Of a stretch of DNA of 64,000 nucleotides, positions 1 through 62,379 are shown piece by piece; the first letter of the stretch is position 1, and every line of letters begins with the position of its first letter. The stretch comes from Polaromonas sp. (GTDB taxonomy: Bacteria > Pseudomonadota > Gammaproteobacteria > Burkholderiales > Burkholderiaceae_C). The stretch lies in the NCBI GenBank assembly GCA_013297865.1, contig JAAFIP010000015.1, positions 31,359 through 95,358 on the forward strand. The letters run 5' to 3'. The notes under the pieces are model-generated. The model searched no databases and had not been told where the DNA came from. It was given only the letters and a program-made list of their open reading frames with translations. The position numbers and the translations under genes are program-made.

Positions 1-287
1 TGCGCATTGGCATGAAAACCTCGGCCATCACCCTGGGCCGACTGGATGTGCCTGCCGTGATGCTTTTTTATGCAGTTTATCTGCTCATTTGGCTTGCAGC
101 CCAATCAAATATCGCGGGAGCAGCTATACTTTTAATAGTGACTATGGTGGCTCTTGCACAGGTAGCTTGGCACTACACACTCATTCGCAGCCGCTCGCGC
201 GAGGGCTGCTTTGCGGCGTTTCGCGCCAACCACTGGTTGGGCTTGACGCTGTTTGCGGGCATTGTTGCAGGGTATGCGTTGCATTAG
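1..287 (+). CDS. ubiA: 4-hydroxybenzoate polyprenyltransferase, C-terminal part (gene continues upstream of the window)
   Basis: The frame is open from the window edge. 'RIGMKTSAITLG' and 'REGCFAAFRANHWLGLTLF' resemble, from memory, E. coli UbiA 'KIGIKSTAILFG' and 'REACFKAFMNNNYVGLVLF'. The Met at 12 in the ORF track is internal. Carries repeat copy 1. Confidence 0.8.
   Translation, partial: RIGMKTSAITLGRLDVPAVMLFYAVYLLIWLAAQSNIAGAAILLIVTMVALAQVAWHYTLIRSRSREGCFAAFRANHWLGLTLFAGIVAGYALH
92..140 (+). repeat. dispersed repeat copy 1 (subfamily A), inside the ubiA 3' region
   Basis: 'GCTTGCAGCCCAATCAAATATCGCGGGAGCAGCTATACTTTTAATAG', translated as 'AAQSNIAGAAILLIV'. Confidence 0.9.
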
Positions 288-1201
288 TTTTGCAAAGCGG
301 TGACCTGCGCCAGGCGGCTGAGCAAAAAATCCACCAACACCCGCACCCGGGGCGCCAGGCCTGCGCGATGCGGGTAAAACATGGCCATGCTGGCATCGCC
401 GCTGTCGTGCTGACGCGCCAGCACCTCGGTCAAGTCGCCGCGCTGCAAAGCGTCAAACGCATGGTGACGCCCCATGCGCGCAATGCCCATGTGCAGCAGC
501 GCAGCGTCCAAAATCACTTCGGGGTCAGAGATCAGCAGCTTGGCCGGGCCTTCAAAGGCCACGACCTTGCCTTTGTCCTTGAACAGCCAGGGTGACAGGC
601 GACCCGAGAGAAACTTCACGCGCAGCAGGTCGTGCTGCGCCAGATCGCTGTAATGCCTGGGCGTGCCGCGCGCCTTCAGGTAGCGCGGCGTAGCCACCAG
701 CACAGACTCCAGCGTGCAGATTTTGCGCGCCACCATGCCTTCGGGCGGCTGCGAGCCACCGCGAATGCCCACATCAAAACCCTCTTTCACCAAGTCCACC
801 GTCTGGTCATTCAAGCTCAGCTCCACCTGCACATCGGGGTGCTGCGCATAAAACGCAGGCAGCAGCGGCAGCACATAGCGCCTGCCAAAGCCTACAGCGC
901 AGTTCAGGCGCACCAGGCCTTGCGGTTTCAGGCCCTGCGTGGCTGCCTGTGAAGCAGCCTCCAGCAGGCTGAGGCCTTCGCGCGTTTGCGCTATGAAAGC
1001 GCGGCCCTCTTCGGTGAGCGACAGCTGGCGCGTCGTGCGGTTAAACAGCCGCACCTGCAGCAGCGCCTCCAGCGCAGCCACGTTTTTGCTGACCGCCGCA
1101 GGGGTCAGATCCAGCACTTTGGCCGCCGCACTGAAGCTGCCGCTATCAGCCGCCTGCACAGCACTGAGCAGACCGGGCAAAGTGGTTTGCAGTTGTTTCA
1201 T
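284..1201 (-). CDS. LysR-family transcriptional regulator
   Basis: N-terminal wHTH 'SFSAAAKVLDLTPAAVSKNVAALEALLQVRLFNRTTRQLSLTEEG'. The 305 aa length is typical, and it is divergent from the next gene. Confidence 0.9.
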   Translation of the reverse strand: MKQLQTTLPGLLSAVQAADSGSFSAAAKVLDLTPAAVSKNVAALEALLQVRLFNRTTRQLSLTEEGRAFIAQTREGLSLLEAASQAATQGLKPQGLVRLNCAVGFGRRYVLPLLPAFYAQHPDVQVELSLNDQTVDLVKEGFDVGIRGGSQPPEGMVARKICTLESVLVATPRYLKARGTPRHYSDLAQHDLLRVKFLSGRLSPWLFKDKGKVVAFEGPAKLLISDPEVILDAALLHMGIARMGRHHAFDALQRGDLTEVLARQHDSGDASMAMFYPHRAGLAPRVRVLVDFLLSRLAQVTALQN

Positions 1202-1319
1202 AGGATTCCTATTCTCAACTCAAAGTTGAAGATGATATGAGCCATTATGTCTTTTTCTAAACCCAGCGCAAGCCCACAATCCATTCCATCGCAACACTTT
1301 ATTTGAAAGGACACTTACC

Positions 1320-2177
1320 ATGTCAAATACTATTTTGGTAACGGGTGCCAGCGGCACCATTGGCACCCAGCTCACGGCACAGCTGCGCGCGGCAGGCGCC
1401 AGCTTCGAGGTCATGACCTCCAAGGCCACTGACAGTGTAGGCGGTGTGCGTGCACGCCAAGCCTCGTTTGAGGATGTGGCCCAGCTGACCCGCGCCTTCG
1501 CGGGCATCGACACGCTGTTTGTGCTGCTGCCCCTGGCGCCGCATAAAGTTCAGCTGGCCCGCAACGTGGCGCAGGCCGCCAAAGCAGCAGGCGTCAAGCA
1601 CATGGTGCGCTCCAGTGGTGCAGGCGCTGACGCGAAGACAGCGTACGCACTGCCGCAGCTGCAAGGCACGATTGATGACATCCTGGCTGCTACGGGTATT
1701 GCCTGCACGTTCTTGCGCAACGCGGGCTTCATGCAGAACTACACTACTTTTGGCGCACAGATGGTCAAGGATGGCATGTGGTATGCCGCAAGCAACGATG
1801 CTGCACAAAGCCTGATCGACGTGCGCGATATTGCAGCCGTGGCCGCGCAGATACTGCAAAACCCCGCTGCCCATGCAGGCAAGGCCTACACCCTCACTGG
1901 CGGCGAGTCGCTCACAGACACGCAGCGCGTGGCAGCGCTGTCTGCCGTGCTGGGCAAGAGCGTGGGCTTCACGCCTATTTCTGTGGAATACGCAGCCAAC
2001 ACCATGAAAAATCAATGGGGCATGCCCGATGTGATGGTGGACTGGATGAGCTCACTCAACCAGATCGTCAGCGCAGGTTATGCCGCAGGCATCAGCCCCG
2101 ACGCGCAGGTCCTGCTGGGTCGCACGCCGATCAGCTTTTCGCAGTTTGCCAAAGACTATGCAACGCAATGGCAATAA
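1320..2177 (+). CDS. NmrA-like / atypical SDR NAD(P)-binding oxidoreductase
   Basis: N-terminal Rossmann motif 'ILVTGASGTIGTQL'; 285 aa; ATG start. Confidence 0.8.
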   Translation: MSNTILVTGASGTIGTQLTAQLRAAGASFEVMTSKATDSVGGVRARQASFEDVAQLTRAFAGIDTLFVLLPLAPHKVQLARNVAQAAKAAGVKHMVRSSGAGADAKTAYALPQLQGTIDDILAATGIACTFLRNAGFMQNYTTFGAQMVKDGMWYAASNDAAQSLIDVRDIAAVAAQILQNPAAHAGKAYTLTGGESLTDTQRVAALSAVLGKSVGFTPISVEYAANTMKNQWGMPDVMVDWMSSLNQIVSAGYAAGISPDAQVLLGRTPISFSQFAKDYATQWQ

Positions 2178-2214
2178 AGTTTTTAACCCCTGTTTTTATT
2201 TTTAGGAGTGCATC

Positions 2215-2862
2215 ATGAAAGTCGCTGTATTAGGAACCGGACAAGTCGCCATCGCTTTGGCCAAGGGCTTTGCAAGCCGTGGGCACAGCGTGGTGTTTGG
2301 CACACGCGATGTGCAGGGCAAAACCGCGCTGGAGGCGGTTGCCGCTGTCAGTGGCAGCAGCGCCGCGCCTTACGCTGAGGCAGCCAAGAGCGCGGATATG
2401 GCCGTGATTACCACCTCGTGGAGCGGCACGCAGAACGCGCTGCAGCTCACGGGCGCGGCCCATCTGGCGGGCAAGCTGGTGATCGATGTGACCAACCCGC
2501 TGGACTTTTCCACTGGCAAGCCTGCTTTGGCTGTGGGCTTTCCCAGCTCGGCAGGCCAGCAGATCCAGCAATGGCTGCCTGGTGCCCATGTGGTCAAGGC
2601 CTTCAACATCATCACGGCCACGCGCATGGTGGACCCGAAGTTTGAAGACGGCCAGGCCGATATGTTTATCGCTGGCAACGACGCAGCGGCCAAGGCCAAG
2701 ACGGTCGATATCCTGAAAAGCTTCGGCTGGCGCACGCCGGTAGACATGGGCGATATCAGCAAAGCCTATTTGCTCGAAGCACTGGCCATGATCTGGATTG
2801 AGTATGGTGTGTCGCGCAATTACTGGGCGCATGGCTTCAGCCTGCTGGGCGCGCAGAAATAA
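2215..2862 (+). CDS. NADPH-dependent F420 reductase-like (NPD/COG2085 family) oxidoreductase
   Basis: 'MKVAVLGTGQVAIALAKGFASRGHSVVFGTRD' dinucleotide-binding N-terminus; about 215 aa; RBS 'aggag' upstream. Confidence 0.8.
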   Translation: MKVAVLGTGQVAIALAKGFASRGHSVVFGTRDVQGKTALEAVAAVSGSSAAPYAEAAKSADMAVITTSWSGTQNALQLTGAAHLAGKLVIDVTNPLDFSTGKPALAVGFPSSAGQQIQQWLPGAHVVKAFNIITATRMVDPKFEDGQADMFIAGNDAAAKAKTVDILKSFGWRTPVDMGDISKAYLLEALAMIWIEYGVSRNYWAHGFSLLGAQK

Positions 2863-2874
2863 GCTGCGACTACC

Positions 2875-3342
2875 CTAACGCCGCAGCCGCGCCCGCGCTG
2901 CGGCCAGTCGTTCGTCCAGCACGCTGCCCAGCATCTCTGCCGAGGCTACGCCTTCGATGCGCGGTGCAATTTCTGCACCCTCGGCGTTCAGAAACAGCAC
3001 GGTAGGTGTGAGCAGGGCCTGGTATGCCACGGCAATATCCGCGCCATGGCTGGGCTGCCCTTTGACATCGGCCACCACCTGCTTGCGGTCGTTGACGGTA
3101 ATCTGAAAGGCATGCACACCTTCGCTGCGCATGGGCGCAAGGTAGTTGCGCCGCAGCAGCTCACACCACGGGCAGCCGGGCAGGCTCACCAGCAGCACCA
3201 GGGGCTCGCCCTTGGCTTGCGCAGCCTGTGCGGCGCTGCGCAGCGAAGCGGGTGTGGGCAAAGGGGTTTCACGCCGCTGGGCCACGGCCCAGCCACCGAG
3301 CGTGGTGGCTGCCCCTAGCATCACAGCGGTGCGGCGTTTCAT
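2875..3342 (-). CDS. secreted thioredoxin-fold protein (CPWC active-site motif)
   Basis: Signal-like N-terminus 'MKRRTAVMLGAATTLGGWAVA' and a 'PGCPWCELL' CxxC motif. The start at 3342 gives a 4-nt ATGA overlap with the upstream gene. The longer ORF-track start at 3453 is unlikely. Confidence 0.7.
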   Translation of the reverse strand: MKRRTAVMLGAATTLGGWAVAQRRETPLPTPASLRSAAQAAQAKGEPLVLLVSLPGCPWCELLRRNYLAPMRSEGVHAFQITVNDRKQVVADVKGQPSHGADIAVAYQALLTPTVLFLNAEGAEIAPRIEGVASAEMLGSVLDERLAAARARLRR

Positions 3343-4070
3343 GCAGCGCAGTCTTTCAGAATCTGCAGCAGCGCATCCGGCGCGCTCACCATCGGGTCGT
3401 GGCCAGTTTTGATTTCTACATAGCGGCCCGCGCGCTGCCACGCCCCGCCCCAAAACTGTGGGTCGCGCACGCGCTGTCGGATGCTGTCGATGGTGGCCAA
3501 CGCAGGGGTGCTGCAGTCGACAAAGGTGCGCGGCACACCGGCTACGCGCTGGATGTCAAAAGCCAGGGGGTGGGTGTAGGGCTCAGCCGGGTGTGGTGTC
3601 TGGCGGCGCTGCACCCAGGCATGGTCATCGCCGCTGAGCCCGAAGATGGCCGGGTCGGGCGGTGGCAGGGTGTAGTGCTCTGACGCGGCAGCGGCGGCCA
3701 GGCGCGCGTCGCGTGTGGCTGGCGCATGGCGAGAGCTCCAGCTCTCGCCGGGCTCAGGGATGGCTGCGTCCAAATACACCAGATGCTTCAGGCGCTGGGG
3801 CATGCGGTCTGCCACGGCGGTGCCGATCATGCCGGCATAGCTGTGCACCACCAGCACCACATCATGCAGCTCCTGTGCCTCGATCGTGTTAATGACGTCG
3901 GCAATATGCGTCTCCAGCGTGATGGCTTTGCTCAGCAGGTGGGCGCGCTCGCCCACGCCCGTCAATGTCACGGCATGGGCCACATGCCCTAAGCGCACCA
4001 GCGCGGGCTGCACCCGGCTCCAGCACCATGCACCGTGCCACGCGCCATGAACCAATACAAAAGTCGCCAT
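3339..4070 (-). CDS. alpha/beta hydrolase (methylesterase/salicylate-esterase-like)
   Basis: 'MATFVLVHGAWHGAWCW' and the nucleophile elbow 'VVHSYAG'; 243 aa. Confidence 0.8.
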   Translation of the reverse strand: MATFVLVHGAWHGAWCWSRVQPALVRLGHVAHAVTLTGVGERAHLLSKAITLETHIADVINTIEAQELHDVVLVVHSYAGMIGTAVADRMPQRLKHLVYLDAAIPEPGESWSSRHAPATRDARLAAAAASEHYTLPPPDPAIFGLSGDDHAWVQRRQTPHPAEPYTHPLAFDIQRVAGVPRTFVDCSTPALATIDSIRQRVRDPQFWGGAWQRAGRYVEIKTGHDPMVSAPDALLQILKDCAA

Positions 4071-4099
4071 TTCAATCTCTTTTTTAGAATAAAACAGGG

Positions 4100-4146
4100 C
4101 GCTAGCCCAATAAAAAGCCGCGGGAGCAGCTATTAAAAGTATAGTA
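4100..4146 (+). repeat. dispersed repeat copy 2 (subfamily B, hairpin form), intergenic
   Basis: 'CCAATAAAAAGCCGCGGGAGCAGCTATTAAAAGTATAG'. On the minus strand it reads AGCTGC-TCCC-GCGGCT followed by TTTTTATT, directly downstream of the CoA-transferase stop. Confidence 0.85.
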
Positions 4147-4157
4147 AATGCCCTGCA

Positions 4158-5363
4158 TTACCTCTTCAACCAGCTGCGCAGCACTTCATCCGTATGCTGC
4201 CCCAGCATGGGTGGCGGCAGGTCGTTGCGCGGCGGGGTGAGCGACATCTTGATCGGGCTGGCCACCAAGGGCACGGCGCCGTTTAAAGGATGCTCCCAGG
4301 TGTGCACCATGTTGCGCGCGACCACCTGGGGGTCGGCAAACACCTCGGCCAGGTTGTTGATCGCCCCGCAGGGCACCTTGGCCGCCTCCAGCGCGGCCAG
4401 CCAGTCGGCCTTGCTGCGGGTTTTGAAAACCGCCTCCAGCAGGGGCACCAGCGTGGCGCGGTGGCGCACGCGGTCTGCGTTTTTGGCAAAGCGGGCATCC
4501 GCCGCCAGCTGCGCCTGCCCTGCCACAGCACACATCTTGGCAAACTGGCCGTCGTTGCCCACGGCCAGAATCAGATGGTCTTTTTCACCACTGGGCATGG
4601 GCGCGGTTTCAAACACCTGGTAGGGCACGATGTTCTGGTGCGCGTTGCCTGCGCGGCCCGGCACCTTGCCGCCGATCAAGTAGTTAGCGCCCAGATTGGC
4701 CAGCATGGCCACCTGCGTGTCCAGCAGCGCCATGTCGATATGCTGGCCCTGGCCTGTGCGCTCGGCATGGCGCAGCGCCGCCAATATGGCCGTGCAGGCA
4801 TACATGCCGGTGAACAGATCAGCCACCGCCACGCCCACTTTCTGCGGCCCGCCGCCAATGTCGTCGCGCTCACCCGTCACGCTCATCAGCCCGCCCATGC
4901 CCTGCACGGCATAGTCGTAGCCTGCACGGTCTTTGTACGGCCCGCTCTGGCCAAAGCCGGTGATGCTGCAATACACCAAAGACGGCTTGATCTGCGAGAG
5001 CGCGGCGTAGTCCAGCCCATAGCGCGCCATGTCGCCGACCTTGAAATTCTCCACAAACACATCGCAGTGCATCACCAGATCGCGGATGGTCTGCTGCCCC
5101 TCGGGTGTGCTGATGTCGCAGGCTACCGAGCGCTTGTTGCGGTTGGTGCCCAGATAGTAAGCCGCCTCGCTGGTGTCCTGGCCCTGCGCATCGCGCAGAA
5201 ACGGCGGCCCCCAGGTGCGGGTGTCGTCCCCGCCCACGCCGTTTTTCAGTGGCTTTTCAATCTTCACCACATCCGCGCCCAGGTCTGCCAAGGTCTGGGT
5301 ACACCACGGCCCCGCCAGCACGCGCGAGAGGTCGAGGATTTTGATTCCGTCTAAGCTGTTCAT
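4158..5363 (-). CDS. family III CoA-transferase (CaiB/BaiF family)
   Basis: 'GIKILDLSRVLAGPWCTQTLADLGADVVKIEKP' is the canonical N-terminus of this family; 401 aa. Confidence 0.9.
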   Translation of the reverse strand: MNSLDGIKILDLSRVLAGPWCTQTLADLGADVVKIEKPLKNGVGGDDTRTWGPPFLRDAQGQDTSEAAYYLGTNRNKRSVACDISTPEGQQTIRDLVMHCDVFVENFKVGDMARYGLDYAALSQIKPSLVYCSITGFGQSGPYKDRAGYDYAVQGMGGLMSVTGERDDIGGGPQKVGVAVADLFTGMYACTAILAALRHAERTGQGQHIDMALLDTQVAMLANLGANYLIGGKVPGRAGNAHQNIVPYQVFETAPMPSGEKDHLILAVGNDGQFAKMCAVAGQAQLAADARFAKNADRVRHRATLVPLLEAVFKTRSKADWLAALEAAKVPCGAINNLAEVFADPQVVARNMVHTWEHPLNGAVPLVASPIKMSLTPPRNDLPPPMLGQHTDEVLRSWLKR

Positions 5364-5449
5364 GACAGTATTGTCTATCCAAAAAGCTTATCTGCGTGCA
5401 AATCTCCTGTGAGCGAGATGCAGGATTCCTTTCGAGGGGCGCGAAGCAT

Positions 5450-5473
5450 AAAAAAAGAGCTCCGAAGAGCTCT
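5450..5473 (-). terminator. rho-independent terminator of the large lipoprotein gene
   Basis: The minus strand reads AGAGCTC-TTCG-GAGCTCT followed by a T7 run, 30 nt after the stop at 5503. Confidence 0.8.
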
Positions 5474-5502
5474 TTATAAACGGTGCTGAACTACGACACC
5501 GA

Positions 5503-8304
5503 TCAGTTAGCCCACTCCGTGGCCTGTGTAATGCGGATGCGGTTGATGTAGGTGTTGAGGAACACATTGCGGTAGGTCACCGAGCTTGTGCTGCCATTGG
5601 TGTTGAGCACGCGGGAACCGTCCAAGCGTTCCACCACGCTGGTGTTGCCTGTGGGCACGCGGCAGCCAGTGAAGCTGGACACGTCAGCCGCGGCGAACGA
5701 CTTGACAGCCGACCCGCTGGTGGACAGCTGCTGGCGCTTGAGCAAGCTGCTCGATGAGCGGCGCACTGTCAAAGGCGACGTGGGCCCATCCAGCAGCGAG
5801 GAGAACAGACCGACCTGGTAGGGCGTAGGCGCAGCGGTGTTGTTGCTCCATTGCACCTGCAGGCTGGGCGCGGCCCCCTGGCTTGGTGTGAGCACCGCAT
5901 GGCTGGGGCTCAGATCATGCAGGGGCATGGTCTGCAGCGACTGGGGTGGCCGGGGCTGGGCGATGATGCGGTCCGTCTCGGTGGACAGCAACACGCCATT
6001 GATGCCGTACAGCGCAATGGTGTAGCGCGACCAAGGCTTAATAAGGCTGTAGTCGATAGCGGTCAATGCGTTGTTGGGGCCGTACGCAGACGTCGTCGTG
6101 CTAAATGCCAGGTCAACGCCCGATAACAGTGCGCGCCCGAGGTGGAAGCGGTTGGTGGTGCTACCAGTGAATGGCGGATATGTCACCGTACTGCTTCCTG
6201 TGTCGCCACCCGCGTAGGTCAATGCACCACTGAAATACGAAACGCCCAAGGTCTCAGCCGTCTGGGTGAATCCGACGCTGACGGTCGTTGACTTGGCGGG
6301 CTCAGTGCCCACATGCCCGAGAAGTTGGAACGTAGTGGTGGCAATGGGCGTCGTGGAGGTCACCATGGGCACTGTGCTGCCGGGCGGCTGTATAACGGAA
6401 CCAGGGCTCAGCACCAGCGTGGTGGTGACACTGGGGCGGCCATAGATAGCATAGCTGTAGAAGGTGAGAGTAGCGGTGCGCTGCGTACCTACGCTGACAA
6501 ACGGATCGTCTCCAGTAGCTGGCGTCGGTGGAATGACCGGAAGGAAGCCTGGAGGCGAACCGGGGTTACCAGGGTTATAGGCAGAATATAAGGTGGGTAG
6601 CGTGCTAGTAAATGGCGCATAAGTGAACGTCGTGACCTTGGGGCCGGGCACCAGGCCCGTTGACGAGTAGTAACCCAAATAGGTGGCCTCGGTGGGGATG
6701 GGCGCGCCCGATGGGGTGTGCGCTACATCGTCAGGGGCAATGCAGGCACCGGTCTGGGTGGATGAGGCGATGCGCGACACGACTACGCCACTGACAGGCA
6801 GGCCCGGCCCGGTCACTTTGGCATACTCAATGCCTGCATCTTCCCAGGCGCGGGTGGTGGTGTTGAAGCGCTGTGTGCCTACAAACAGACCCAGGCTGCT
6901 GAAGTCCAGTGACGGTGCTGCGGGGGCTGTCAAAGTGCCAGTCACCACATTGGTCGCTGCATTCAGGTTGGTGTAGCGGGTCATGCGCGGCGTGACGCTG
7001 AAAGAATAGTTGCTCTGACCACCGTAGAACCACCAGTCACTGCTGGAGCCATCGGTGTTGGCGATAGCCGAGCGTTGCGCGCCTGCGGCAGCAAAGCCAT
7101 CAAAACGGCGCATCGTGAAAACAGAGGTGCGGTAAGCCTGGTTGGCGGGCTGGTACCAGCGCAGCTCCACGACGGCCTTGTCCAAGTCGCTACCAGTGCC
7201 TGCAGCGTTCTCCTGCAGCAGCAGTTCAGGGGCATCAAACATGGCGCCTGTCATCACATCAGCGTTTTCAAGAACGCGGTTGCGGTCCCTGCGTCCACTC
7301 ATCTGCACCACCACCTCGGTAAAGTCGCGCCCGGAGCTTTTGAAATTGGGGTGTGCCAGACCTGCACAGGCGTTGCCTGCTGCGTTGTAGTCACGCGCAG
7401 AATCGGTCTGTGCAAAGCAGGCCGTCAGTTTATTGCGCAGCGAGTCCAGACGCGCAAAGTTAAGCTCTTTGCCAGACGTCAATACCAAAGGCGTGCTCGC
7501 AGTCAAAGGCGCGGACACCACAGCGCCCGCTGCGTCATAGCTGATCGTTTTGGGGTACAGGTCTGTTGCTCCACTGGGCGTGATCTCGTGGCGCACCTGG
7601 TCCAGCACCTTGTCGTAGCCTGTGCCGTCCGCGTAGAAGGGTGTGGTCACCGGGTCAAAGCTGCTGGTGCCTGAAACGCCAGCGCTGCTCAGCGCACTGC
7701 CAAAAGTGTCCAGCACCGTGGCTTTGGCGCTGCTGATGTTGGCCGCAGTGATGTCGGCAGGCGTGATGGCGCTGCTGGCGGTTCCCGTGATCAGACTGGT
7801 CATCTTGTCCGTGAGCGGCGTGATGTTGGCATTGATCACCGAGCCTGGCGTGATGGCGGTGTCGCTCACTGAGTAATAGATCTTGCCGTTCTGCGAAATG
7901 ACTTTGACCACCAGTGGGGCCACAAAGCCCGTCACCTTGGCAAAGTAATAGCCTTGTGCATTGGTTTTGACGCTGACGGTCTGTGCAGGAGACGACGCAT
8001 CGGTCACGATGACGGTGCCGTTGCTGATCGGTCCGCCTTCGGCGGCAGTGCCGTTGAGGCCTGCGTCGGTGCGGGTGTAAGACACGGGGGTGCTGCCATT
8101 GAGCGAAAAGCCCGACAGGCTTGCCGGGTCTATGGCGCCCTGGCTGCCCGCGATGGTGAAGGCAGGCGTGCTGGTGTTGGGGTTGCTACCTGAATTGGTG
8201 CCGGGGTCTGCGCTGCCCTGGGCTGGCGAACCGCCCCCTCCCCCGCAACCGCTCAAGGCGCCTAATAACGCCAGTGCCCACGTGGCCAGAAACTTAGAGT
8301 TCAT
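5503..8304 (-). CDS. large (about 933 aa) secreted lipoprotein of unknown function, Ser/Thr/Gly/Ala-rich
   Basis: Lipobox 'LLGALSGCGGGGGS' after the Met at 8304, a long uninterrupted ORF, and its own terminator. A 'GTVIVTDASSPAQTVSVKTNAQGYYFAKV' segment resembles a carboxypeptidase-regulatory-like beta sandwich. No catalytic motif recognised. Confidence 0.7.
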   Translation of the reverse strand: MNSKFLATWALALLGALSGCGGGGGSPAQGSADPGTNSGSNPNTSTPAFTIAGSQGAIDPASLSGFSLNGSTPVSYTRTDAGLNGTAAEGGPISNGTVIVTDASSPAQTVSVKTNAQGYYFAKVTGFVAPLVVKVISQNGKIYYSVSDTAITPGSVINANITPLTDKMTSLITGTASSAITPADITAANISSAKATVLDTFGSALSSAGVSGTSSFDPVTTPFYADGTGYDKVLDQVRHEITPSGATDLYPKTISYDAAGAVVSAPLTASTPLVLTSGKELNFARLDSLRNKLTACFAQTDSARDYNAAGNACAGLAHPNFKSSGRDFTEVVVQMSGRRDRNRVLENADVMTGAMFDAPELLLQENAAGTGSDLDKAVVELRWYQPANQAYRTSVFTMRRFDGFAAAGAQRSAIANTDGSSSDWWFYGGQSNYSFSVTPRMTRYTNLNAATNVVTGTLTAPAAPSLDFSSLGLFVGTQRFNTTTRAWEDAGIEYAKVTGPGLPVSGVVVSRIASSTQTGACIAPDDVAHTPSGAPIPTEATYLGYYSSTGLVPGPKVTTFTYAPFTSTLPTLYSAYNPGNPGSPPGFLPVIPPTPATGDDPFVSVGTQRTATLTFYSYAIYGRPSVTTTLVLSPGSVIQPPGSTVPMVTSTTPIATTTFQLLGHVGTEPAKSTTVSVGFTQTAETLGVSYFSGALTYAGGDTGSSTVTYPPFTGSTTNRFHLGRALLSGVDLAFSTTTSAYGPNNALTAIDYSLIKPWSRYTIALYGINGVLLSTETDRIIAQPRPPQSLQTMPLHDLSPSHAVLTPSQGAAPSLQVQWSNNTAAPTPYQVGLFSSLLDGPTSPLTVRRSSSSLLKRQQLSTSGSAVKSFAAADVSSFTGCRVPTGNTSVVERLDGSRVLNTNGSTSSVTYRNVFLNTYINRIRITQATEWAN

Positions 8305-8453
8305 TGTGATCGTCTCCTGCTTGAAATGAAAATGCCGCGTGCAAACGAAGCTCACACGCTCGCACGAATCTAAGGCGTGCCGCTGAGCCCGCTAGCCAAA
8401 TGCGTATCTCTTGTATCTCGGGCCGCTGCGACCCTGCGGCTCGGTTCCGCCGC

Positions 8454-9905: not shown

Positions 9906-10058
9906 GTTGTTGGTTTTTATTTTCAGCAGCCCGCCATGGATCGCGACGGTGTCTGTGCCTCGTCCTCAAGCGTGACACAGAATCAAGCGGGATTAATTCA
10001 CACAATCCGAAAATCAGGGCTATGCACGGCGCAGACACGTTGCAACGATAATAGAGCC

Positions 10059-12487: not shown

Positions 12488-12546
12488 ATGAGCCCGCGCG
12501 CCACCTGCTGCACCATGCTCCTGCCAGACTGCGGGGCCAAGCAGCC

Positions 12547-14334: not shown

Positions 14335-14336
14335 TT

Positions 14337-14382: not shown

Positions 14383-14411
14383 CACTTATTTACTAATAAA
14401 AAGCGGCTTGT

Positions 14412-14948: not shown

Positions 14949-14993
14949 AATCAGGGGTTTTGACACTTCATCAGCCCCACACAAGGAACTCGC

Positions 14994-51062: not shown

Positions 51063-51156
51063 ACCGTCTCCTATGGTGCAATGGGGTCGTGATGGGGCTC
51101 AGGCAGACAGGTCAATCCAGCGGCCTTGGCATCAAGGCGACGCAGAGGGGCCCGCC

Positions 51157-51798: not shown

Positions 51799-51832
51799 GG
51801 CCGACTCCTGTTGATATAGCTATACATTTATT

Positions 51833-52618
51833 CTACTTTCTCAGTAAGCGCGACATCAAGCCACGCTTGTTTGAGCCTTCTTTGGCCTGCATCAGCAGCA
51901 CCGTAATATTATCCCTGCCACCAGCCTCATTGGCCGCTGCAATCAAGGTATTGCACTTTTGCTCCAGCGTCTCATCGTTACGCAAGATCTGTGCAATGCC
52001 GTCGTCGTCCACCATGTCAGACAGGCCATCAGAACACATCAAGTACAGATCGCCAACCTCCACGCGGTGCTCATTGACTTCCAGCAACACCGTGTCTTCC
52101 ACGCCCAGTGCGCGGGTGACCAGGTTTTTGTTCAGCGATGTAGCAGCCTGCTCAGGAGTGATTAAGCCTGCATCAAGCTGTTCCTGCAAGAGCGAATGGT
52201 CCCTGGTGATCTGGCTGAACTCCTCGCCACGCAGGCGATAGCAGCGCGAATCGCCAATATGGCCGAGCATCAGGCGTGCTTCGTGGCACACCCCCACCAC
52301 CAGCGTGGTGCCCATGCCGGCGTACTGCGGATTGGAGTTGGCAGCATTGAAGATCGAACGATTGGCGTTGTCCACGCAGATTTCCAGCGCGCGGCGCACT
52401 TCGCGGGCATTGGCGGTTTTGCCCACCTGCGACAGCCAGCGGCTGAGTTCGGAGCGGATAAACGCGGTGGCCATGCCACTGGCGACTTCGCCAGCGTTAT
52501 AGCCGCCCATGCCATCGGCTAGGACGGCCAGCTGGGTGGGTGCATCAAAAGTGACCGAATCCTCGTTGTTGTCTCGCGCGAGTCCGGGGTCGGTATGGGT
52601 ACAAAATTGGTAAATCAT
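51833..52618 (-). CDS. PP2C-family Ser/Thr protein phosphatase
   Basis: 'RDNNEDS', 'LADGMGG', 'CSDGLSD' and 'GGRDNITVLL' are PPM motifs; 261 aa. Confidence 0.9.
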   Translation of the reverse strand: MIYQFCTHTDPGLARDNNEDSVTFDAPTQLAVLADGMGGYNAGEVASGMATAFIRSELSRWLSQVGKTANAREVRRALEICVDNANRSIFNAANSNPQYAGMGTTLVVGVCHEARLMLGHIGDSRCYRLRGEEFSQITRDHSLLQEQLDAGLITPEQAATSLNKNLVTRALGVEDTVLLEVNEHRVEVGDLYLMCSDGLSDMVDDDGIAQILRNDETLEQKCNTLIAAANEAGGRDNITVLLMQAKEGSNKRGLMSRLLRK

Positions 52619-52647
52619 GGTATAGCCGGGGCCTACTATAACGAGTT

Positions 52648-55386
52648 TTAGCTATGAGTCCCCGAATTGGGAGGGGGCGCGACTATGGTTTTCTCGAACT
52701 TTGAAGGCTCAGGCGTGAATTTTTGCGTTGCAGCAAAACCATCTGGACTGGTTTTGGACACTGCTGGCGCGCTCATGATACGGGTGGGCTCTTCTGCGTC
52801 TGCGCTGGCGACAACAGGACGCGGGCTGGCTACTGTCTGGGGCTGGGTATCGCCCACACCCATCTCGGCGATGGCCAGGCGCAGATCGCTGGCCAGTTGC
52901 TCGCCATCCTGGTAGCGCGTCTCAGGGCGTTTGCTCAGTGCGCGCATCACCACATGGGCTACTCGCTCGCTCAGGTCGGCTCGGATGGCGCGTACATCGG
53001 GGGCTTCTTCGTTGGCGATTTTGTACATCAGCTCAGCCATTGAGTCACCACGGAACGGCAGCACGCCAGCAAGCATCTGGAAAAGCATCACGCCCAGGGA
53101 ATACAGGTCTGAGCGCCCGTCGACTTTTTTGCCCGCAATCTGCTCGGGTGACATGAAGCTGGGGGTGCCCAGCACCAGACCGGTTTTGGTTTTGCTGGAG
53201 TCGGTAATGCGTGCAATGCCAAAGTCGGTCACCTTGACCGTGTCGCTGTCCAGCTCATACATGATGTTGGCAGGCTTGATGTCACGGTGCACCACATTCT
53301 GGCGGTGTGCATAAGCCAGCGCCTGCGCCACGCGCTCCACAATCGACAGCACCTTGGCCACCGGCAGCAAACTGCCTTGTTTGCAGAAATCCACCAGGTC
53401 TTTGCCTTTGAGAAACTCCATGGCGATGTAGGCCAGATCATGCTCTTCGCCCGCATCAAAAATCGTCACGATGTTCTGGTGCTGCAGGCGCCCTGCGGTT
53501 TCTGCCTCGCGGAAGAAGCGCTCACGCGCATCAATCAGCTCATCCCCATCGAACTCCTGCGACAAGGCCATGGTCTTGATAGCCACAACGCGGCCAATCT
53601 TGGGGTCCTTGCCCAGATAGACCACCCCCATCGCGCCCTTGCCCAGTTCTTTTTCGACCTGGTAACGGCCCAGCATGGGTTTCTCCACGCCGCCGCCGTC
53701 CAGTAGCATGGTGCCGCCAGGGTGCGCGCCTGTGCCACCGAGGATGACGGTTTCCGAGAGGTTTTTGGCACGGCTGAGTTTGGCATCCAGCCCTTTGTAG
53801 CTGCGGTCCAGCCCGGCCATGTGCTCATACACCGCCTGGGCCTTGTTGAACTGGCGCTTGCGCTCAAAATCCAGCGCCAGATTGCCCAGGTTACCCATCA
53901 GGGCGTCACTCACCGGCACGCGGCGAAAACGGTCAAATGCCATGTCCAGCTGGCCTTGGCCCTGCAACGCCAGGCCCATCATGCGGTTGGTCTCGGCAGA
54001 CTCCTCATCGCTTTTAACTTTGCCTGCTTCGGTGAACAGGAAACGTTTGGTGGTCAGCGCCAGGTGGCCGATCACCAGCAGCATGGCGGGAAACACCAGC
54101 TTGAGCCACTTGCTGTTTTGCGAGAGCAGCACATATTCAGCGATCAAAAACAGCGCGAACACTGCGCCCGTCATGACCGCGCCCTGGCCTGCAGACAGGC
54201 GCGGCAGCAGCACAATCAGATAGGCCATGGTCAACAGCACGGCCAGACCGGAGGTGATGTAAGCCCATGAGGGCGTGCTGACGAAGTGCTCAGACAGAAT
54301 GCCCGAGGTGACATGGGCCGTGAGCTCTACCGGGGTCATGGAGCGGCCCAGCGGCGTGGGAAACTCCACACCCAAACCTGCTGCGGTAGGGCCGAGCAGC
54401 ACGATTTTGTTGGCGTATTTGCTGGCTTGTACTTTGCCAGACAGCACATCAAAGGCAGAGTCGGTGGCAAATGCGGTCTTGCCATCGCGGTCGGCGTAGA
54501 AGAAGGGGCGCATCAAGGCCGCGCCGCCTTCGTCAGTACCAATGCGCAGCTTGCCCAGCTGAATTTCAAACGGATTGTCGTTCACACGGATGTCAGCCGG
54601 GCCCAGATTGAGACTGCGGGCTGCCGCCAAAAGCGCTATCGAGGGAACAAGCTGGCCGTAGTAGTTGGTAAGCAAAGGCTCGCTGCGTATCGCGCCGTCA
54701 ATATCTGCCACCTTGCTGGCATGCCCGATGCCAATGGCCTTGCTGCCCAAAATCTCCAGCGGCTCCAAAATACCGGCCGCCTCTACGCCCAGCAGTGTGG
54801 CAGGCGCGGCAACCAGGCTTTTGGTGGTGCCCGGGCTCAGGGGTTTGTCTGGCTTGCCACGGGCTTCACCCGGCGTGAAAGACGCCGCCAGAATGACCTT
54901 GTTGGATGCCGCAATCGACTGCGCCAGTTTGGCGTCACTGTTGAGTGCTTCTTCACCCTCGGTGGCGATCTTGTTGACCGCCTCCAGCGTGGAGTTGCTG
55001 GCCGAGGGGTCGATGGCCAGCGCCTCGCGGATCTTGCGCAGATAGGGCAAGCCGCGCTCCATCTGCGGCTCAAAATAGAACACGGTGTTGACGATGGACT
55101 TGGGTGCGCCGGAGTTGATTTTGTCGATCAGCTGGGCCTGCACATCGCGCGACCAGGGCCAGCGACCGATATTGGCAATGCTTTGGTCATCAATGGCGAT
55201 GATGGCGATCTGGTCAGAAGGCTTTTTGTTGGCCGCGCTGAGGGATACGTCGTAGAAGCGGTTTTCAAACGTATCTACAAAGTTGGTACTTTTGTAGAGC
55301 AGCAGTACGCCAAGCACCACCAGGACGCCCACAAACCAGTCGGAGCGCCAGAATTGGCTACGTTTTGAAGAAGATCCTGTCCCCAC
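52648..55386 (-). CDS. CHASE2 sensor-linked Hanks-type Ser/Thr protein kinase
   Basis: - N-terminal CHASE2 region ('IAIIAIDDQSIANIGRWPWSR').
- TM cluster followed by a helical linker.
- Kinase domain with 'GKGAMGVVY', 'VAIKTM', 'HRDIKPANI', 'DFGIA' and 'GTPSFMSPE'.
- Pro/Ser-rich tail.
- 912 aa in total. Confidence 0.9.
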   Translation of the reverse strand: MGTGSSSKRSQFWRSDWFVGVLVVLGVLLLYKSTNFVDTFENRFYDVSLSAANKKPSDQIAIIAIDDQSIANIGRWPWSRDVQAQLIDKINSGAPKSIVNTVFYFEPQMERGLPYLRKIREALAIDPSASNSTLEAVNKIATEGEEALNSDAKLAQSIAASNKVILAASFTPGEARGKPDKPLSPGTTKSLVAAPATLLGVEAAGILEPLEILGSKAIGIGHASKVADIDGAIRSEPLLTNYYGQLVPSIALLAAARSLNLGPADIRVNDNPFEIQLGKLRIGTDEGGAALMRPFFYADRDGKTAFATDSAFDVLSGKVQASKYANKIVLLGPTAAGLGVEFPTPLGRSMTPVELTAHVTSGILSEHFVSTPSWAYITSGLAVLLTMAYLIVLLPRLSAGQGAVMTGAVFALFLIAEYVLLSQNSKWLKLVFPAMLLVIGHLALTTKRFLFTEAGKVKSDEESAETNRMMGLALQGQGQLDMAFDRFRRVPVSDALMGNLGNLALDFERKRQFNKAQAVYEHMAGLDRSYKGLDAKLSRAKNLSETVILGGTGAHPGGTMLLDGGGVEKPMLGRYQVEKELGKGAMGVVYLGKDPKIGRVVAIKTMALSQEFDGDELIDARERFFREAETAGRLQHQNIVTIFDAGEEHDLAYIAMEFLKGKDLVDFCKQGSLLPVAKVLSIVERVAQALAYAHRQNVVHRDIKPANIMYELDSDTVKVTDFGIARITDSSKTKTGLVLGTPSFMSPEQIAGKKVDGRSDLYSLGVMLFQMLAGVLPFRGDSMAELMYKIANEEAPDVRAIRADLSERVAHVVMRALSKRPETRYQDGEQLASDLRLAIAEMGVGDTQPQTVASPRPVVASADAEEPTRIMSAPAVSKTSPDGFAATQKFTPEPSKFEKTIVAPPPNSGTHS

Positions 55387-58668: not shown

Positions 58669-58842
58669 AGGTTGTGATCCGAGTGGTGATGATAAAAATT
58701 AGTCAGAAATGGAATGATGTCGTGCACAATTTGCATACCGATAACCGTGCAATTACAGCGGGTGAACTGTATCATGTTGCAATGCACAAAGTTTGTGCGC
58801 AAACTTACAGCCCGGTCCACAGGCAAAAAGCGAGATTTAACC

Positions 58843-59799
58843 ATGGCAGCACCCAAAGCAAAAGTCTTTATTGATGGCGAAGCAGGCACCACCGGCCTGC
58901 AGATTCGCGAGCGTCTGGCCACCATGGACCAGGTGGAGGTCATCAGCATTGCGCCCGAGCGGCGCAAAGACCCCGAGGCCAAGAAAGAGCTGTTTGCCGC
59001 AGCAGACCTGGTGGTGCTGTGTCTGCATGACCAGTCCGCTATTGAATCTGTAGCTGCCTGCGCGACTATCCAGAGGGCTGCAGGCCAAAAACCCTTGAAA
59101 ATCATTGACGCTTCCACGGCCCATCGCGTGGCCCCTGGCTGGGTGTTTGGCTTTCCCGAGCTGTCAGCCCAACATCGGCAAGCCGTTCAAAACGCCCAGT
59201 TCGTCTCCAACCCCGGCTGCTATGCCACGGGAGCCATTGCCATACTTCGCCCCTTGGTGGACGCAGGCATCTTGCCCAAAGACCATCCGCTGGCGCTGCC
59301 CGCCGTCAGCGGCTACAGCGGCGGTGGCCGCCAGATGATTGAAGACTACGAAGGCAAAAACGGCGAAAAAGGCAGCGCACCCGCCTACGAGCTATACGCC
59401 CTGGGTCTCAAGCACAAACACATCCCAGAGATCATGGCGCACACCGGCATCACCCGCCGCCCCATCTTTATCCCCAGCGTGGGCAACTTTGCCCAAGGCA
59501 TGCTGGTGGAGCTGCCGCTGCACCTGGACACCCTGCCCGGCAAACCGCGCATCGCTGACCTGCACGCCGCCTACGCCAAGCATTACGCTGGCAGCCAGTG
59601 GGTGCGGGCCGAGCCCGCCACCGAAAACGGCAAGCTCGACCCGCTCGCGCTCAACGGCACCAACCAGCTGGAAATCCGCGTGTTTGGCAACGACGAGGCC
59701 CAGCAAGCCGTGGTTGTCGCCCGGCTGGACAACCTGGGTAAAGGCGCCAGCGGCGCAGCCGTGCAAAACCTGAAGCTGATGCTGGGCCTGGACGGCTAG
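58843..59799 (+). CDS. argC: N-acetyl-gamma-glutamyl-phosphate reductase (short, type 2 form)
   Basis: '[19 protein letters not shown]' and the active site '[11 protein letters not shown]'. The ATG at 58843 is preferred over the longer ORF-track start. Confidence 0.9.
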
Positions 59800-60348: not shown

Positions 60349-60489
60349 GAAACCACCTCGTCGTTAGCATCGAAGCACCCAGTCTGGAGGTGCATCATGG
60401 CTGCCGTGTGAGCGGGCCGTAAACTTGGGTAAACGGATGCGAAAGTCTGTAGGAGGTGTTGCTGCAGGGGTCTAAAGCACACCCTGTTT

Positions 60490-60537
60490 GCTATAAATTA
60501 AATAGCTGCTCCCGCAGCTTTTTATTGGTCTCAAGCC
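60490..60537 (-). repeat. dispersed repeat copy 10 (subfamily B, hairpin form), intergenic
   Basis: 'GCTATAAATTAAATAGCTGCTCCCGCAGCTTTTTATTGGTCTCAAGCC'. It has an AGCTGC-TCCC-GCAGCT stem flanked by A/T runs on both sides and lies 24 nt after the stop at 60561. Confidence 0.85.
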
Positions 60538-60560
60538 GGTTTTCATTACTATTTCAGGCG

Positions 60561-62198
60561 CTAATCGCCATAGATGCTGGCGGGAATCCGGTTGCCCAGG
60601 GTTTGCCAGATGTAGCGGGTCAGCGTGTGGGGCTTGCCATACGCATCCACACCCGGGGCGCAAAAGCCGCGCTGGGTGTTGTTCACCGCAGGCACCGCGC
60701 CAGCAGGGACCGGGTTGGGCTCTGCAAAAACCGCCTTGATCTGGTCTTCATAGGGCCAGGGCCACAAAGGCACATTGGTCGTCTGGTCGTAGCCAGGCTC
60801 TCCCCAAGACGTGCCGTCTACCCCGTAGCGGGTGAGGATTTTGGCCCCGCTGATGTTGCTCTCGCGGTCTACGATATAGCGCAAGGCCGGGTTGGCCGCC
60901 GTGGCTACCTGGCTGTAGCCGCCGGTAAAGCCTGCGCTGCCAGTGCTGGAGAGATTCGGATTGCCCAGCAGCAGCGAGTCTGAAAATCGGTTTTGCGCAC
61001 CGATGATGTCGGCGTAAAAGGCATAAGGGTTCTGGCCTATGGTGAGCTGGTTCCACAGCGTGTCACCCCCATTGTTGTTGGCCCGCACACCCGCCAAAAA
61101 GCTGGTGCCCAGGTTGCCCCAGGCGACAGAGTTGACCAGATGGATCGACTTGCTGGCGGGGTATTCGGCCAGAAAAAAGCCAGCGTATTCGGCCCGGTTG
61201 TTCAACACAATCGAGCCATAAAACTTCAGGTTTTCGGTATTTTTGGGGTTGTAGACCCCGCCGTACACCGTGTCGCCTGCGGTAGGCCCCATCTGTCCGT
61301 CGATCACGATCAGGTTCTGCACCAGAAAGTCTTTGACCCGGATCGGCAGATCGTTGTTGCCGTAGATGGAAAAAGCCGCTTTGGGCTGCGCTGAGCTGAT
61401 GTAGTCCACACGTGCCACGATCCTGCGGAAGATGTTCTTGCTTTGGGTGGCGTCTGGCCCACCGGCGTTGAAGCCGTAGCGCGCATGCCCTACACCCGCC
61501 AGGTCTTCCATCAGGTTGTTGTTGCCGCCCACATAGAAAAAGCCGCCGTATTGCTCGGCCTCGCCCTGGCGCTTGAAAATGCTGCGCGTGATTTTGACAA
61601 AATTGCCATCGACCTGCCCTACAAACGGCGGATAGGCAGTGTCTTTTTGCACAAAAACGAAGCCATCGACCTTGATGTAATTGCCCGTGATGAACAGCGC
61701 ATTGTCGTAATAGTTCAGCGGGCCAGCGTTTTCGATCCGTACGGAGTAGGGGCTTTCGGCGCGGATGGTGGTCAGCTTTTGTGCGCTGCCGTTGGGAAAG
61801 GGGTGCATTTGCTGGTTGATGAAGTTGGCGCTGCCTGTGTACAGCCCGGCCTTCACCACGAGGGTGCCACCCGCAGACAGGCGGCTGATGCCCTTGGAAA
61901 GAGTCTTGTACGGGCTGGCTTGCGTACCAGCGCCAGAGGTGTCGTTGCCCGTGGTTGCCACCCATATCGCGTCAGCAGGCACTGGCTCCTGCGGTGTGGG
62001 GGGCACGGTCACCGTGGTGGTGCTGGTGGGAGTGGTGCCTGCCGAGGGCGTGCTGTCCTGGGGCGTGGACACGCTGGCAGCATTGCTGGCAGTGCTGGGG
62101 CCGCCAGAGCCGCCACCGCCACAGCTGCTTATCAGCAGCGCGGCCATACCTAACAGCAGCGCAAGTGAGATGCCACGCGGGCGCAGGAGATGGGTCAT
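60561..62198 (-). CDS. secreted lipoprotein with right-handed parallel beta-helix (pectate-lyase-fold/DUF1565-like) domain
   Basis: Lipobox 'LLISSCGGGGSGG', a Thr/Pro-rich linker, then 'TGNDTSGAGTQASPYKTLSKGISRLSAGGTLVVKAGLY', typical of beta-helix N-caps. Start at Met 62198. Confidence 0.7.
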   Translation of the reverse strand: MTHLLRPRGISLALLLGMAALLISSCGGGGSGGPSTASNAASVSTPQDSTPSAGTTPTSTTTVTVPPTPQEPVPADAIWVATTGNDTSGAGTQASPYKTLSKGISRLSAGGTLVVKAGLYTGSANFINQQMHPFPNGSAQKLTTIRAESPYSVRIENAGPLNYYDNALFITGNYIKVDGFVFVQKDTAYPPFVGQVDGNFVKITRSIFKRQGEAEQYGGFFYVGGNNNLMEDLAGVGHARYGFNAGGPDATQSKNIFRRIVARVDYISSAQPKAAFSIYGNNDLPIRVKDFLVQNLIVIDGQMGPTAGDTVYGGVYNPKNTENLKFYGSIVLNNRAEYAGFFLAEYPASKSIHLVNSVAWGNLGTSFLAGVRANNNGGDTLWNQLTIGQNPYAFYADIIGAQNRFSDSLLLGNPNLSSTGSAGFTGGYSQVATAANPALRYIVDRESNISGAKILTRYGVDGTSWGEPGYDQTTNVPLWPWPYEDQIKAVFAEPNPVPAGAVPAVNNTQRGFCAPGVDAYGKPHTLTRYIWQTLGNRIPASIYGD

Positions 62199-62330
62199 GG
62201 AACAAAGTTGTACCACTAAAGTGAGCATGCTTGCAACAGCGCAAGTGACCAAGCGGGTCAAATTTGCGATGCAAAGCCAAAGTTTTGCGTGGTTTTGGGC
62301 TGCTGTGGGGACCAGGACAGATTTTTAAAT

Positions 62331-62379
62331 GCTACAAATAATATAGCTGCTCCCGCGATATTCTATTGGGCTGGAGGCC
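62331..62379 (-). repeat. dispersed repeat copy 11 (subfamily A), forming the 3' end of a GNAT remnant
   Basis: 'GCTACAAATAATATAGCTGCTCCCGCGATATTCTATTGGGCTGGAGGCC'. The TAG stop at 62363-62365 lies inside its CCAATAG arm. Confidence 0.9.

Follow-up and report, generated by a model that had tools for sequence, protein, structure and literature searches.

A dispersed repeat was found in a 64,000-nucleotide (nt) stretch of Polaromonas sp. DNA (GenBank assembly GCA_013297865.1, contig JAAFIP010000015.1, positions 31,359 to 95,358), hereafter the window. The tested copies of this repeat within open reading frames (ORFs) were remodelled in place and were not inserted DNA: codons of the host genes were overwritten with the motif, and none were added. 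Four processes were observed for the family, namely insertion of the unit between genes, amplification as inverted doublets, in-place remodelling of coding sequence, and homogenisation, within each genome, of a centre lying between constant flanks. Tentatively, as a possibility short of a probability, we favour the explanation that this is a vertically inherited dispersed repeat of a Polaromonas-type clade, similar to REP/REPIN (BIME) elements and homogenised within the genome by templated copying of the gene-conversion type.

The 21-nt core of the repeat, AATATCGCGGGAGCAGCTATT, had nine matches in the window at no more than three mismatches, against 0.01 expected from 100 shuffles. This bears out the sequence-only reading, made earlier from the letters of the window, that a dispersed repeat family is present. 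All 11 copies listed there were recovered at their positions by extraction and alignment. A profile made from the window copies retrieved these 11 and a weak 12th (59038-59093, minus strand, 26-31 bits), giving 12 copies in 64 kb, or about one per 5 kb, in both orientations without polarity. The unit, put earlier at about 45-50 nt, proved to be longer: the consensus, which included about 100 further copies from other genomes, was 58-73 nt in length and read roughly TTTT..AAAT-C-GGGCTGCAGCCC-AATAGAATAT-CGCGGGAGCA-GCTAT-N7-ATAGC-(A/G)nnT. Likewise, the copy at 35912-35946, which had been taken for a partial one, was full length (35883-35952). The conserved span from AGCCC to ATAGC was at least 45 nt long and included a 20-nt core that was nearly invariant, whereas the N7 segment was AT-rich and otherwise variable. 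Considering this combination of a near-invariant core and a variable N7 segment, it may be concluded that the copies are old yet maintained. The core had also been described as quasi-palindromic; in fact, the 20-nt core was non-palindromic, and only short palindromes, GGGCTGCAGCCC and GCTAT-N7-ATAGC, flanked it. Counts of sequences at a Hamming distance of 5-6 from the core were at background, and a 1.5-2-fold excess at a distance of 7-8 may be compositional. Two sub-variants following the GGGCTGCAGCCC block, AAT(A/G)G.. and TTTA(A/G)..., were seen among the copies of loci L001-L050.

The origin of the copies inside genes was examined by comparison of the host proteins with orthologs. In ThiL, the 22 codons under the copy aligned gap-free to 17 orthologs (69-84% identity); relative to solved chains of the PDB, the window protein had about three additional amino acids (aa) at the copy. 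The MFS transporter had no indels relative to 16 orthologs from genomes without the family, the residues at and around the site were conserved (VLAMICIAGPATQWWAWALFC vs VLATIIIAGPAAGAVAWALFC in orthologs), and most orthologs had GC-rich codons there. A heptosyltransferase gene carried a copy in L051 and L055 over the conserved segment AGKTSL.QAI..AAS...V.NDSGLMH; its window ortholog lacked the copy, and there were no indels. The same was true of a TolC-like gene, in which a partial copy in L053 corresponded to ordinary sequence of equal length in the window, again without indels. The Pfam match of UbiA (residues 1-79 against profile positions 171-249) left no extra residues, and the Wzy_C_2 match of the PglL-type ligase (residues 388-577 against profile positions 2-185) left at most about six. 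The lipoprotein was the sole longer host found: its segment preceding the cysteine was 33 aa long vs about 20-25 aa in orthologs, which is about 10-13 aa longer and indicates an N-terminal extension.

Alignment with orthologs had been proposed as a check for insertion, and its outcome spoke against insertion: the MFS transporter and ThiL had no indels, and their orthologs encoded partly the same residues with ordinary GC-rich codons, an outcome that the sequence-only reading had itself named as refuting an inserted element. Considering that the orthologs were of the same length, shared some of the residues and used GC-rich codons, it could be concluded that the in-ORF copies were native coding segments converted to the motif. 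The analogy with in-frame elements of the Rickettsia type, drawn in the sequence-only reading, therefore stands as regards a dispersed family tolerated by coding sequence; the in-frame insertion falls, since the tested hosts added no residues.

The conversion was visible in codon usage. The GC content at third codon positions of the thiL segment was 0.14-0.27 vs 0.52-0.78 for the whole gene in seven of seven genomes (0.23 vs 0.78 in the window), and in these seven genomes the segment always retained GCTA(T/C)-N7-(A/G)TAGC. The dominant sense frame of the repeat was AQ(Q/W)NIAGAAI, with CAG or TGG in place of the TAG of CAATAG, and the dominant antisense frame was IAAPAIF(Y/H)WA. The peptides read earlier from the copies, NIAGAAI and IAA(P/L)AIF, were correct and recurred in other genomes. 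Because both dominant frames encode small hydrophobic residues, the copies are biased toward membrane helices and signal peptides. No copy broke the frame of its host, as had been stated. The names given to the host genes were also upheld by Pfam, which returned UbiA, MFS_1, CinA, AIRS/AIRS_C (ThiL), an HlyD-type membrane-fusion protein, Wzy_C/PglL_A and a GNAT fragment, and the lipoprotein host had a lipobox.

The comparison of genomes demonstrated that the constant flanks, ..AGCCC and GCAGCTA(T/C)-N7-ATAGC, enclosed a centre of 12-20 nt, which was the same throughout a genome but varied from genome to genome. This centre was AATAGAATAT-CGC-GGGA-GCA in the window and L053, AATAAAATAC-TGC-ACAA-GCA in L054, AAGTATTTAC-TGC-TCAA-GCA in L051, ..(A/G)GC-GTAA-GCA in L055 and GTTATA.AATC-TG. 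in L056. At the orthologous in-ORF sites (thiL, cinA and the heptosyltransferase gene), each copy had the version of the genome in which it resided. Orthologous copies at the cinA site were found in L051, L052 (weak, 14.9 bits), L053, L054 and L055, and the cores that were readable, those of L051 and L053-L055, had the version of their own genome each time. On average, the 22-nt centre of the thiL copy was 78% identical to non-orthologous copies of the same genome vs 50% identical to orthologous copies elsewhere; for cinA, the corresponding values were 82% and 67%. The amino acids followed the DNA version (CinA ELLPRYSIG vs ELFTLYSIG; heptosyltransferase ITAQ vs IQAQ). As judged from these alignments, the copies within a genome evolve in concert, and this overrides amino acids. 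The versions of genomes sharing 83% ThiL identity differed at roughly half of the 22 positions of the core; because these differences are block-wise, templated replacement fits better than stepwise point mutation.

Between genes, the repeat behaved differently at one site. The genes of a CoA-transferase and an alpha/beta hydrolase were adjacent in 13 related loci and abutted or overlapped in 12 of these, with a spacer of -1 to +1 nt, mostly TGATG; the spacer of the remaining locus was 14 nt. In the window, the spacer was 87 nt and consisted of the repeat and a T-rich inner extension. Thus, the intergenic copy at 4071-4157 is a true insertion. This was the one clean empty site, and a true insertion was demonstrated at this intergenic copy only. 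The C-terminus of the window CoA-transferase was ..EVLRSWLKR* vs ..GKVI* in the orthologs (window 4158-4200), and the residual similarity of the bases after it (GGGCATTTAC vs GTGATTTGA) suggests that the insertion disrupted the old stop region. At two other intergenic sites, the gene order 3' of ptsP, the PEP-utilising enzyme gene (copy 14331-14400), was not conserved in relatives, and the hydrolase/Glu-synthase spacer was complex (649 nt in L051 vs 112 nt in L055).

Intergenic copies also formed inverted doublets, of which 16 pairs with gaps of 85-113 nt were found, 15 of them in 271 kb from the Polaromonas bins and the other in L054 (L006 1703-1929, L017 7287-7510, L001 2648-2867 and 12 others; L054 8725-8951). 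A doublet was about 290 nt long and non-coding and consisted of two inverted units with the GCTAT..ATAGC ends outward and arms of about 95 nt; the spacers were conserved and fell into two classes. Doublets were numerous in one Polaromonas bin (JAYVDN...), the L054 doublet had the core of L054 itself, and the window had none. No consistent direct repeat, as expected of a target-site duplication, was found beside the 16 aligned doublets. Most copies of the family were single and had no terminal inverted repeats; only the doublets had long arms. This layout of singlets and doublets resembles that of REP/REPIN or BIME elements.

To map the distribution of the family, 185,579 species-representative genomes were scanned with a 19-nt core. 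The core was present at no fewer than 50 loci, and among the matches listed, all were in four Polaromonas genome bins. These bins contained 100 copies in 271 kb of loci picked because they contain the core; in six related loci, the density was 0.10-0.33 copies per kb. As a control, 822 kb of related metagenomic loci from outside the clade, which carried the ortholog of the window's CoA-transferase at 71-80% identity, contained no window-type copies, and a profile of all core versions likewise detected no copies in them apart from a single relic, at the L070 MFS site. This partial relic, in L070 (8538-8567) and L108, consisted of GCTAT/GCTAC-N7-GTAGC/ATAGC plus GCGGG and was composed of AT-rich codons; the two loci had no other copies, and one of them was a 68% GC locus. 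The relic suggests that the family was formerly present in those lineages and was lost. Together with the presence of the thiL copy in genomes down to 69% ThiL identity, this indicates that the family is old.

A search of PLSDB plasmids with the 70-nt consensus found no match at E up to 0.01, which only a match of about 26 nt or longer can reach, and the exact core was not found in the viral contigs of IMG/VR. The window itself is core chromosome with sucCD, rpsL, thiL, ubiA, an RND efflux system and type IV pilin genes, and Pfam scans of about 50 of its ORFs found housekeeping genes and no transposase or integrase. A literature search for the core sequence found no published description. Considering also that there was no Rfam match and that the repeat differs from the BRE family (see below), the earlier statement that no description of this family was known holds.

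It was then considered whether the repeat is read as RNA. The GCTAT...ATAGC hairpin proposed earlier was present as a palindrome, but among 66 copies there was no compensatory change: for three small palindromes, including the 5-bp stems, every measure of covariation was below that of shuffled controls. Folding of the element, also proposed earlier, yielded no stable or consistent fold, with z-scores from +0.12 to -2.7 that were inconsistent among copies. Rfam had no match in the whole window at gathering thresholds and none at the copies within 1-15000 at E up to 5. Therefore, a structured RNA was rejected. A promoter or consistent terminator module was rejected as well, since no promoter-like match was found in the copies and terminator-like matches overlapped copies only weakly, in two cases.

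An enzyme that could mobilise the repeat was also sought. The RAYT/IS200-like or other transposase suggested in the sequence-only reading was found neither in the Pfam scans of the window nor in the ORFs between copies, nor by a six-frame regular-expression search for the HUH motif in 1.3 Mb, of which about 0.45 Mb was from the clade. The ORFs lying between closely spaced inverted copies (0.4-1.1 kb apart) encoded an ArsC-type phosphatase, an aquaporin, an enoyl-CoA hydratase, and YfiH-like and glyoxalase-like proteins, with no RAYT, other transposase or insertion sequence (IS) with matching ends among them. Because the clade DNA searched amounted to only about 0.45 Mb, this negative result has little power.

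The observations could be combined as follows under the REP/REPIN-like, conversion-homogenised repeat that we favour. The constant flanks would serve as homology arms, and the centre would be copied between copies; such flank-guided copying would yield both concerted evolution and block-wise core versions. The same conversion, seeded where codons for small hydrophobic residues (..IAGAAI.., ..IAAPAIF..) happen to resemble the motif, would overwrite coding sequence and settle wherever the protein tolerates it, the TAG of CAATAG in the sense frame becoming CAG or TGG. A hypothetical sequence-specific reader encoded by the genome would probably set the centre, mobilise the units and doublets and bias the conversion. 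Such a reader would most likely be a DNA-cleaving or transposase-type enzyme comparable to RAYT.

Several points weigh against this explanation. No RAYT or candidate reader was found in the HUH scan or the inter-copy ORFs described above, which is a weak test. Classical REPs lie outside genes and form hairpins that have a GTAG head and compensatory changes in the stem, whereas here about two-thirds of the copies in gene-called loci were in ORFs, the core was non-palindromic, and there was no covariation. We know of no documented case for REPs of gene conversion from a repeat to weakly similar coding sequence, and the sequences at the heptosyltransferase or MFS sites seem to have started out too dissimilar for conversion of the RecA type. 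Finally, an origin in place with no indels is precisely the prediction of uptake-signal drive.

The last point leads to the explanation that the repeat is an uptake-signal-like motif, comparable to the DNA uptake sequences (DUS) and uptake signal sequences (USS), which is the chief competitor, although we consider it unlikely on the whole. According to it, an uptake or recombination machinery would prefer DNA with the motif, better matches would spread by transformation (molecular drive), and a change of the receptor would shift all sites to another core version. Such a drive would account for in-ORF copies that arose without indels at tolerant positions, as in USS/DUS (PMC2817400), for genome-specific versions at orthologous sites, for the use of both orientations without polarity and for the lack of structural covariation in the motif. 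It also agrees with the absence of matches in plasmids (PLSDB) and viral contigs (IMG/VR), with the in-ORF fraction of 8/12 in the window, which is close to the 65% for H. influenzae USS (PMC2817400), and with the type IV pilins, PglL-type ligase and T2SSE-type ATPase encoded in the window. However, known uptake sequences are far shorter than the conserved span of this motif (at least 45 nt, including the 20-nt core), the versions differ in blocks of about 10 positions and not by 1-2 bases, and intermediate matches were few, those at Hamming distances of 5-6 being at background. In addition, uptake drive provides no duplicative mechanism, which is required both for the insertion of 87 nt and for the doublets of about 290 nt, with their multiple copies and conserved spacers, and a literature search turned up no account of natural competence or of uptake specificity for Polaromonas. 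Alternatively, the motif might be the binding site of an architectural or regulatory protein of the host, for example, a dimer on GCTAT-N7-ATAGC with an additional contact to the core, the sites being under ordinary selection and co-evolving with the protein. This would explain position-specific conservation with a free N7, the irrelevance of orientation, the persistence of the nucleotide constraint in thiL across genomes to 69% ThiL identity and the lack of an RNA structure signal. It is nevertheless improbable because about a thousand sites of at least 40 bits that override enzyme residues would be an implausible genetic load and because the block-wise change of all sites, the insertion and the amplified doublets would be left unexplained.

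A small mobile element, similar to transposable elements of the miniature inverted-repeat kind (MITEs) or Rickettsia palindromic elements (RPEs), that inserts in frame and adds a short hydrophobic peptide would be suggested by the dispersed family with one proven intergenic insertion, by the lipoprotein signal peptide that is about 10-13 aa longer than in orthologs and by the MITE-like inverted doublets. We regard it as very improbable: wherever an ortholog comparison of an in-ORF copy was possible, residues were neither added nor lost within the alignment, and the residues inside the copy in the MFS transporter and the heptosyltransferase were the conserved native ones. Moreover, neither a target-site duplication nor a related transposase was found, and insertion alone cannot make orthologous copies track the core version of their genome. 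Even less credence is given to a transcribed structured RNA, terminator or promoter module repeated genome-wide. Some copies in reverse orientation do read as a GC hairpin followed by a T-rich stretch, two overlap terminator-like matches, and several intergenic copies adjoin terminator-like hairpins. Against this stand the lack of an Rfam match at E up to 5, the inconsistent fold z-scores (+0.12 to -2.7) without covariation, the lack of promoter-like matches in the copies and the occurrence of copies in both orientations relative to host genes and also inside ORFs.

The family was compared with known systems. REP, BIME and REPIN elements with RAYT transposases are known in Enterobacteria and Pseudomonas (PMC3116915, PMC3337134, bioRxiv 10.1101/2021.07.10.451892). 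Like these, the Polaromonas repeat consists of short chromosomal units present as singlets or as inverted doublets with a conserved spacer, has no target-site duplication, and shows vertical inheritance with a lineage-specific consensus, a conserved core and variable loop positions; REP/REPIN elements occur in hundreds of chromosomal copies. Gilson et al. reportedly described, in 1987, palindromic units of E. coli and Salmonella with a species-specific consensus at homologous positions. Unlike REP/REPIN elements, the Polaromonas core forms no hairpin and has no evident GTAG-type head or stem covariation, about two-thirds of the copies in gene-called loci lie within ORFs over native codons, and no RAYT was found. 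The DUS of Neisseriaceae and the USS of Pasteurellaceae have cores of 9-12 bp, or about 30 bp with flanks (PMC2817400, PMC1626085, PMC2397512). The Polaromonas repeat shares with them a dense occurrence in both orientations and largely in ORFs, an in-place origin without indels, changes of residues at tolerant positions, species-specific 'dialects' and absence from foreign DNA. It differs from them in a conserved span of 45 nt or more, block-wise versions, an insertable unit of about 73-87 nt and amplified 290-nt doublets. Thus, the family fails defining features of both REP/REPIN elements and uptake sequences.

The RPEs, according to Ogata et al. (2000), are said to be insertions that add a peptide segment within genes. 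The Polaromonas repeat is like them in being found inside protein-coding genes with unbroken reading frames and unlike them in that the tested hosts have not changed in length, the native residues are partly retained, and the copies of each genome show concerted evolution. Bacterial MITEs include Correia/NEMIS, ERIC and others (review PMC10969869). At about 290 nt, the doublets resemble MITEs in being non-coding and multi-copy with long terminal inverted arms; unlike MITEs, the family has no target-site duplication, occurs mostly as single arms, and no parent IS with matching ends was found in about 0.45 Mb of clade DNA. MITEs were reportedly also described for Polaromonas sp. JS666 by Mattes in 2008. 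The BRE family (beta-proteobacterial repeat element) has 29 copies in Polaromonas JS666, sometimes inside coding sequence, and is also present in Bordetella/Comamonadaceae (Hot et al. 2011, PMC3110155). The present repeat is like BRE in occurring in Polaromonas and partly within coding sequence. BRE was rejected as its identity since the sequences in the supplement (TTTTTTTGGCCGCGGGCCGCCCAAGGCAAAAAAGCCCCC..., about 90 bp, 69% GC) were unrelated to it.

If the remodelling in place is correct, a dispersed repeat reshapes protein sequences without inserting anything, and codons of conserved enzymes (ThiL and the heptosyltransferase), transporters and signal peptides follow a motif whose core changes from genome to genome. 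Two phenomena that are usually separate would thereby be linked, REP/REPIN-type behaviour between genes and uptake-signal-type behaviour inside genes. The family is a tractable system for studying how dispersed copies stay identical, whether by gene conversion, nuclease-driven drive or uptake bias. In practice, the motif makes spurious short ORFs and islands of low GC3 (GC at third codon positions), which may mislead annotation and the detection of horizontal transfer in Polaromonas genomes and bins. It is possible, if doubtful, that the family represents something new for bacterial repeats, a long (45 nt or more) signature motif, the centre of which is determined by a reader that the genome encodes and which is rewritten by templated conversion onto many sites, conserved enzyme-coding sequence among them. 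Candidate routes may be biased conversion driven by a nick or a single-stranded DNA intermediate, or pairing of a guide-like reader with the variable centre that lies between the constant flanks. If so, the amino acids of many short segments of the proteome would be prescribed by a DNA code, selfish or self-marking, that differs among species.

In the window, 8-9 of the 12 copies were within open frames, and in the gene-called loci, which included L051-L056, about two-thirds of the copies were inside ORFs; the figure of 25-30% for L001-L050 is a lower bound owing to the crude gene calls there. The first copy (77-145, plus strand, 46-55 bits) lay in the 3' part of ubiA (frame 3-287, plus strand) and was read as AAQSNIAGAAILLIV. 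The inserted copy described above (4071-4157, plus strand) occupied the 87-nt spacer between the CoA-transferase (4158-5363, minus strand) and hydrolase (3339-4070, minus strand) genes, which contained the repeat itself (4082-4151) and the T-rich inner extension. At the 5' end of the lipoprotein gene (10059-10547, plus strand), the copy at 10067-10132 (plus strand, 56-62 bits) encoded PDQWNIAGAAIIFIV of the signal peptide. The MFS transporter gene (10544-11809, plus strand) contained a diverged copy (11456-11519, minus strand, 41 bits) that encoded LAMICIAGPATQWWAWAL. The copy at 14331-14400 (minus strand, 41-58 bits) was intergenic, between convergent genes, and extended over the stop codon of the PEP-utilising enzyme gene (12547-14334, plus strand).

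Codons 8-30 of cinA/pncC (27431-27967, minus strand) were covered by a copy at 27876-27944 (plus strand, 57-60 bits) read as LLLNQELLPRYSIGLL, and thiL (30243-31253, minus strand) contained a copy at 30465-30530 (plus strand) read as AIDNVAALAIFHWAGHG. The N-terminus of the RND membrane-fusion protein, a membrane anchor or signal (gene 34816-35982, minus strand), was encoded in part by the copy at 35883-35952 (plus strand, 45-53 bits), read as NTIAAAAIFLTAGG; the orthologous copy, at L053 3970-4033, had a different core. The weak 12th copy (minus strand) was in a semialdehyde-dehydrogenase (ArgC-like) gene (58714-59799, plus strand) and retained GGCCTGCAGCCC..TCGCGCAGGCAGCTAC-N7-ATAGC. Two further copies were located on either side of the ORF at 60561-62261 (minus strand): one was intergenic, 13 nt 3' of its stop codon (60486-60548, minus strand, 47-52 bits), and the other lay between this ORF and the GNAT fragment (62363-62653, minus strand) at 62326-62392 (minus strand, 59-65 bits), where it covered the last codons of the GNAT fragment, assigned by Pfam, and provided its TAG stop. 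These two copies, which are in the same orientation, flank an ORF of 566 aa that lacks a Pfam match; its predicted product has a lipobox and a linker rich in Ser/Thr/Pro, looks like a secreted lipoprotein and has nothing transposase-like.

The remaining copy (41814-41883, minus strand, 50-64 bits), read as AGQWNIAGAAIKSIA, was in the gene of the PglL/Wzy_C-type O-glycosylation ligase (41450-43189, minus strand). This gene belongs to a type IV pilus-type locus (41450-47987), in which it adjoins, together with the gene of a GAF-MshEN-T2SSE ATPase (45555-47987, minus strand), two tandem pilin-like genes (44102-44680 and 44740-45306, both on the minus strand, Pfam N_methyl). The 300-nt stretches 44102-44401 and 44740-45039 of the pilin-like genes were 86% identical.

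Other features of the window were recorded as well. A signalling cluster (48813-55386) encoded a CHASE2-adenylate/guanylate cyclase, an FHA-domain protein, a PP2C phosphatase and a CHASE2-Ser/Thr kinase; it contained a 64-nt direct repeat (50835-50898 and 55153-55216), which is probably due to paralogy of the two CHASE2 proteins. Two large ORFs, 5503-8355 and 8454-9905 (both on the minus strand; 950 and 483 aa), had coding-like GC3 and no Pfam match at E up to 1e-5. A 68-nt inverted repeat (24579-24646 and 25674-25741, 75% complementary), unrelated to the family, surrounded the gene of a LysR-type regulator (24768-25667, minus strand).

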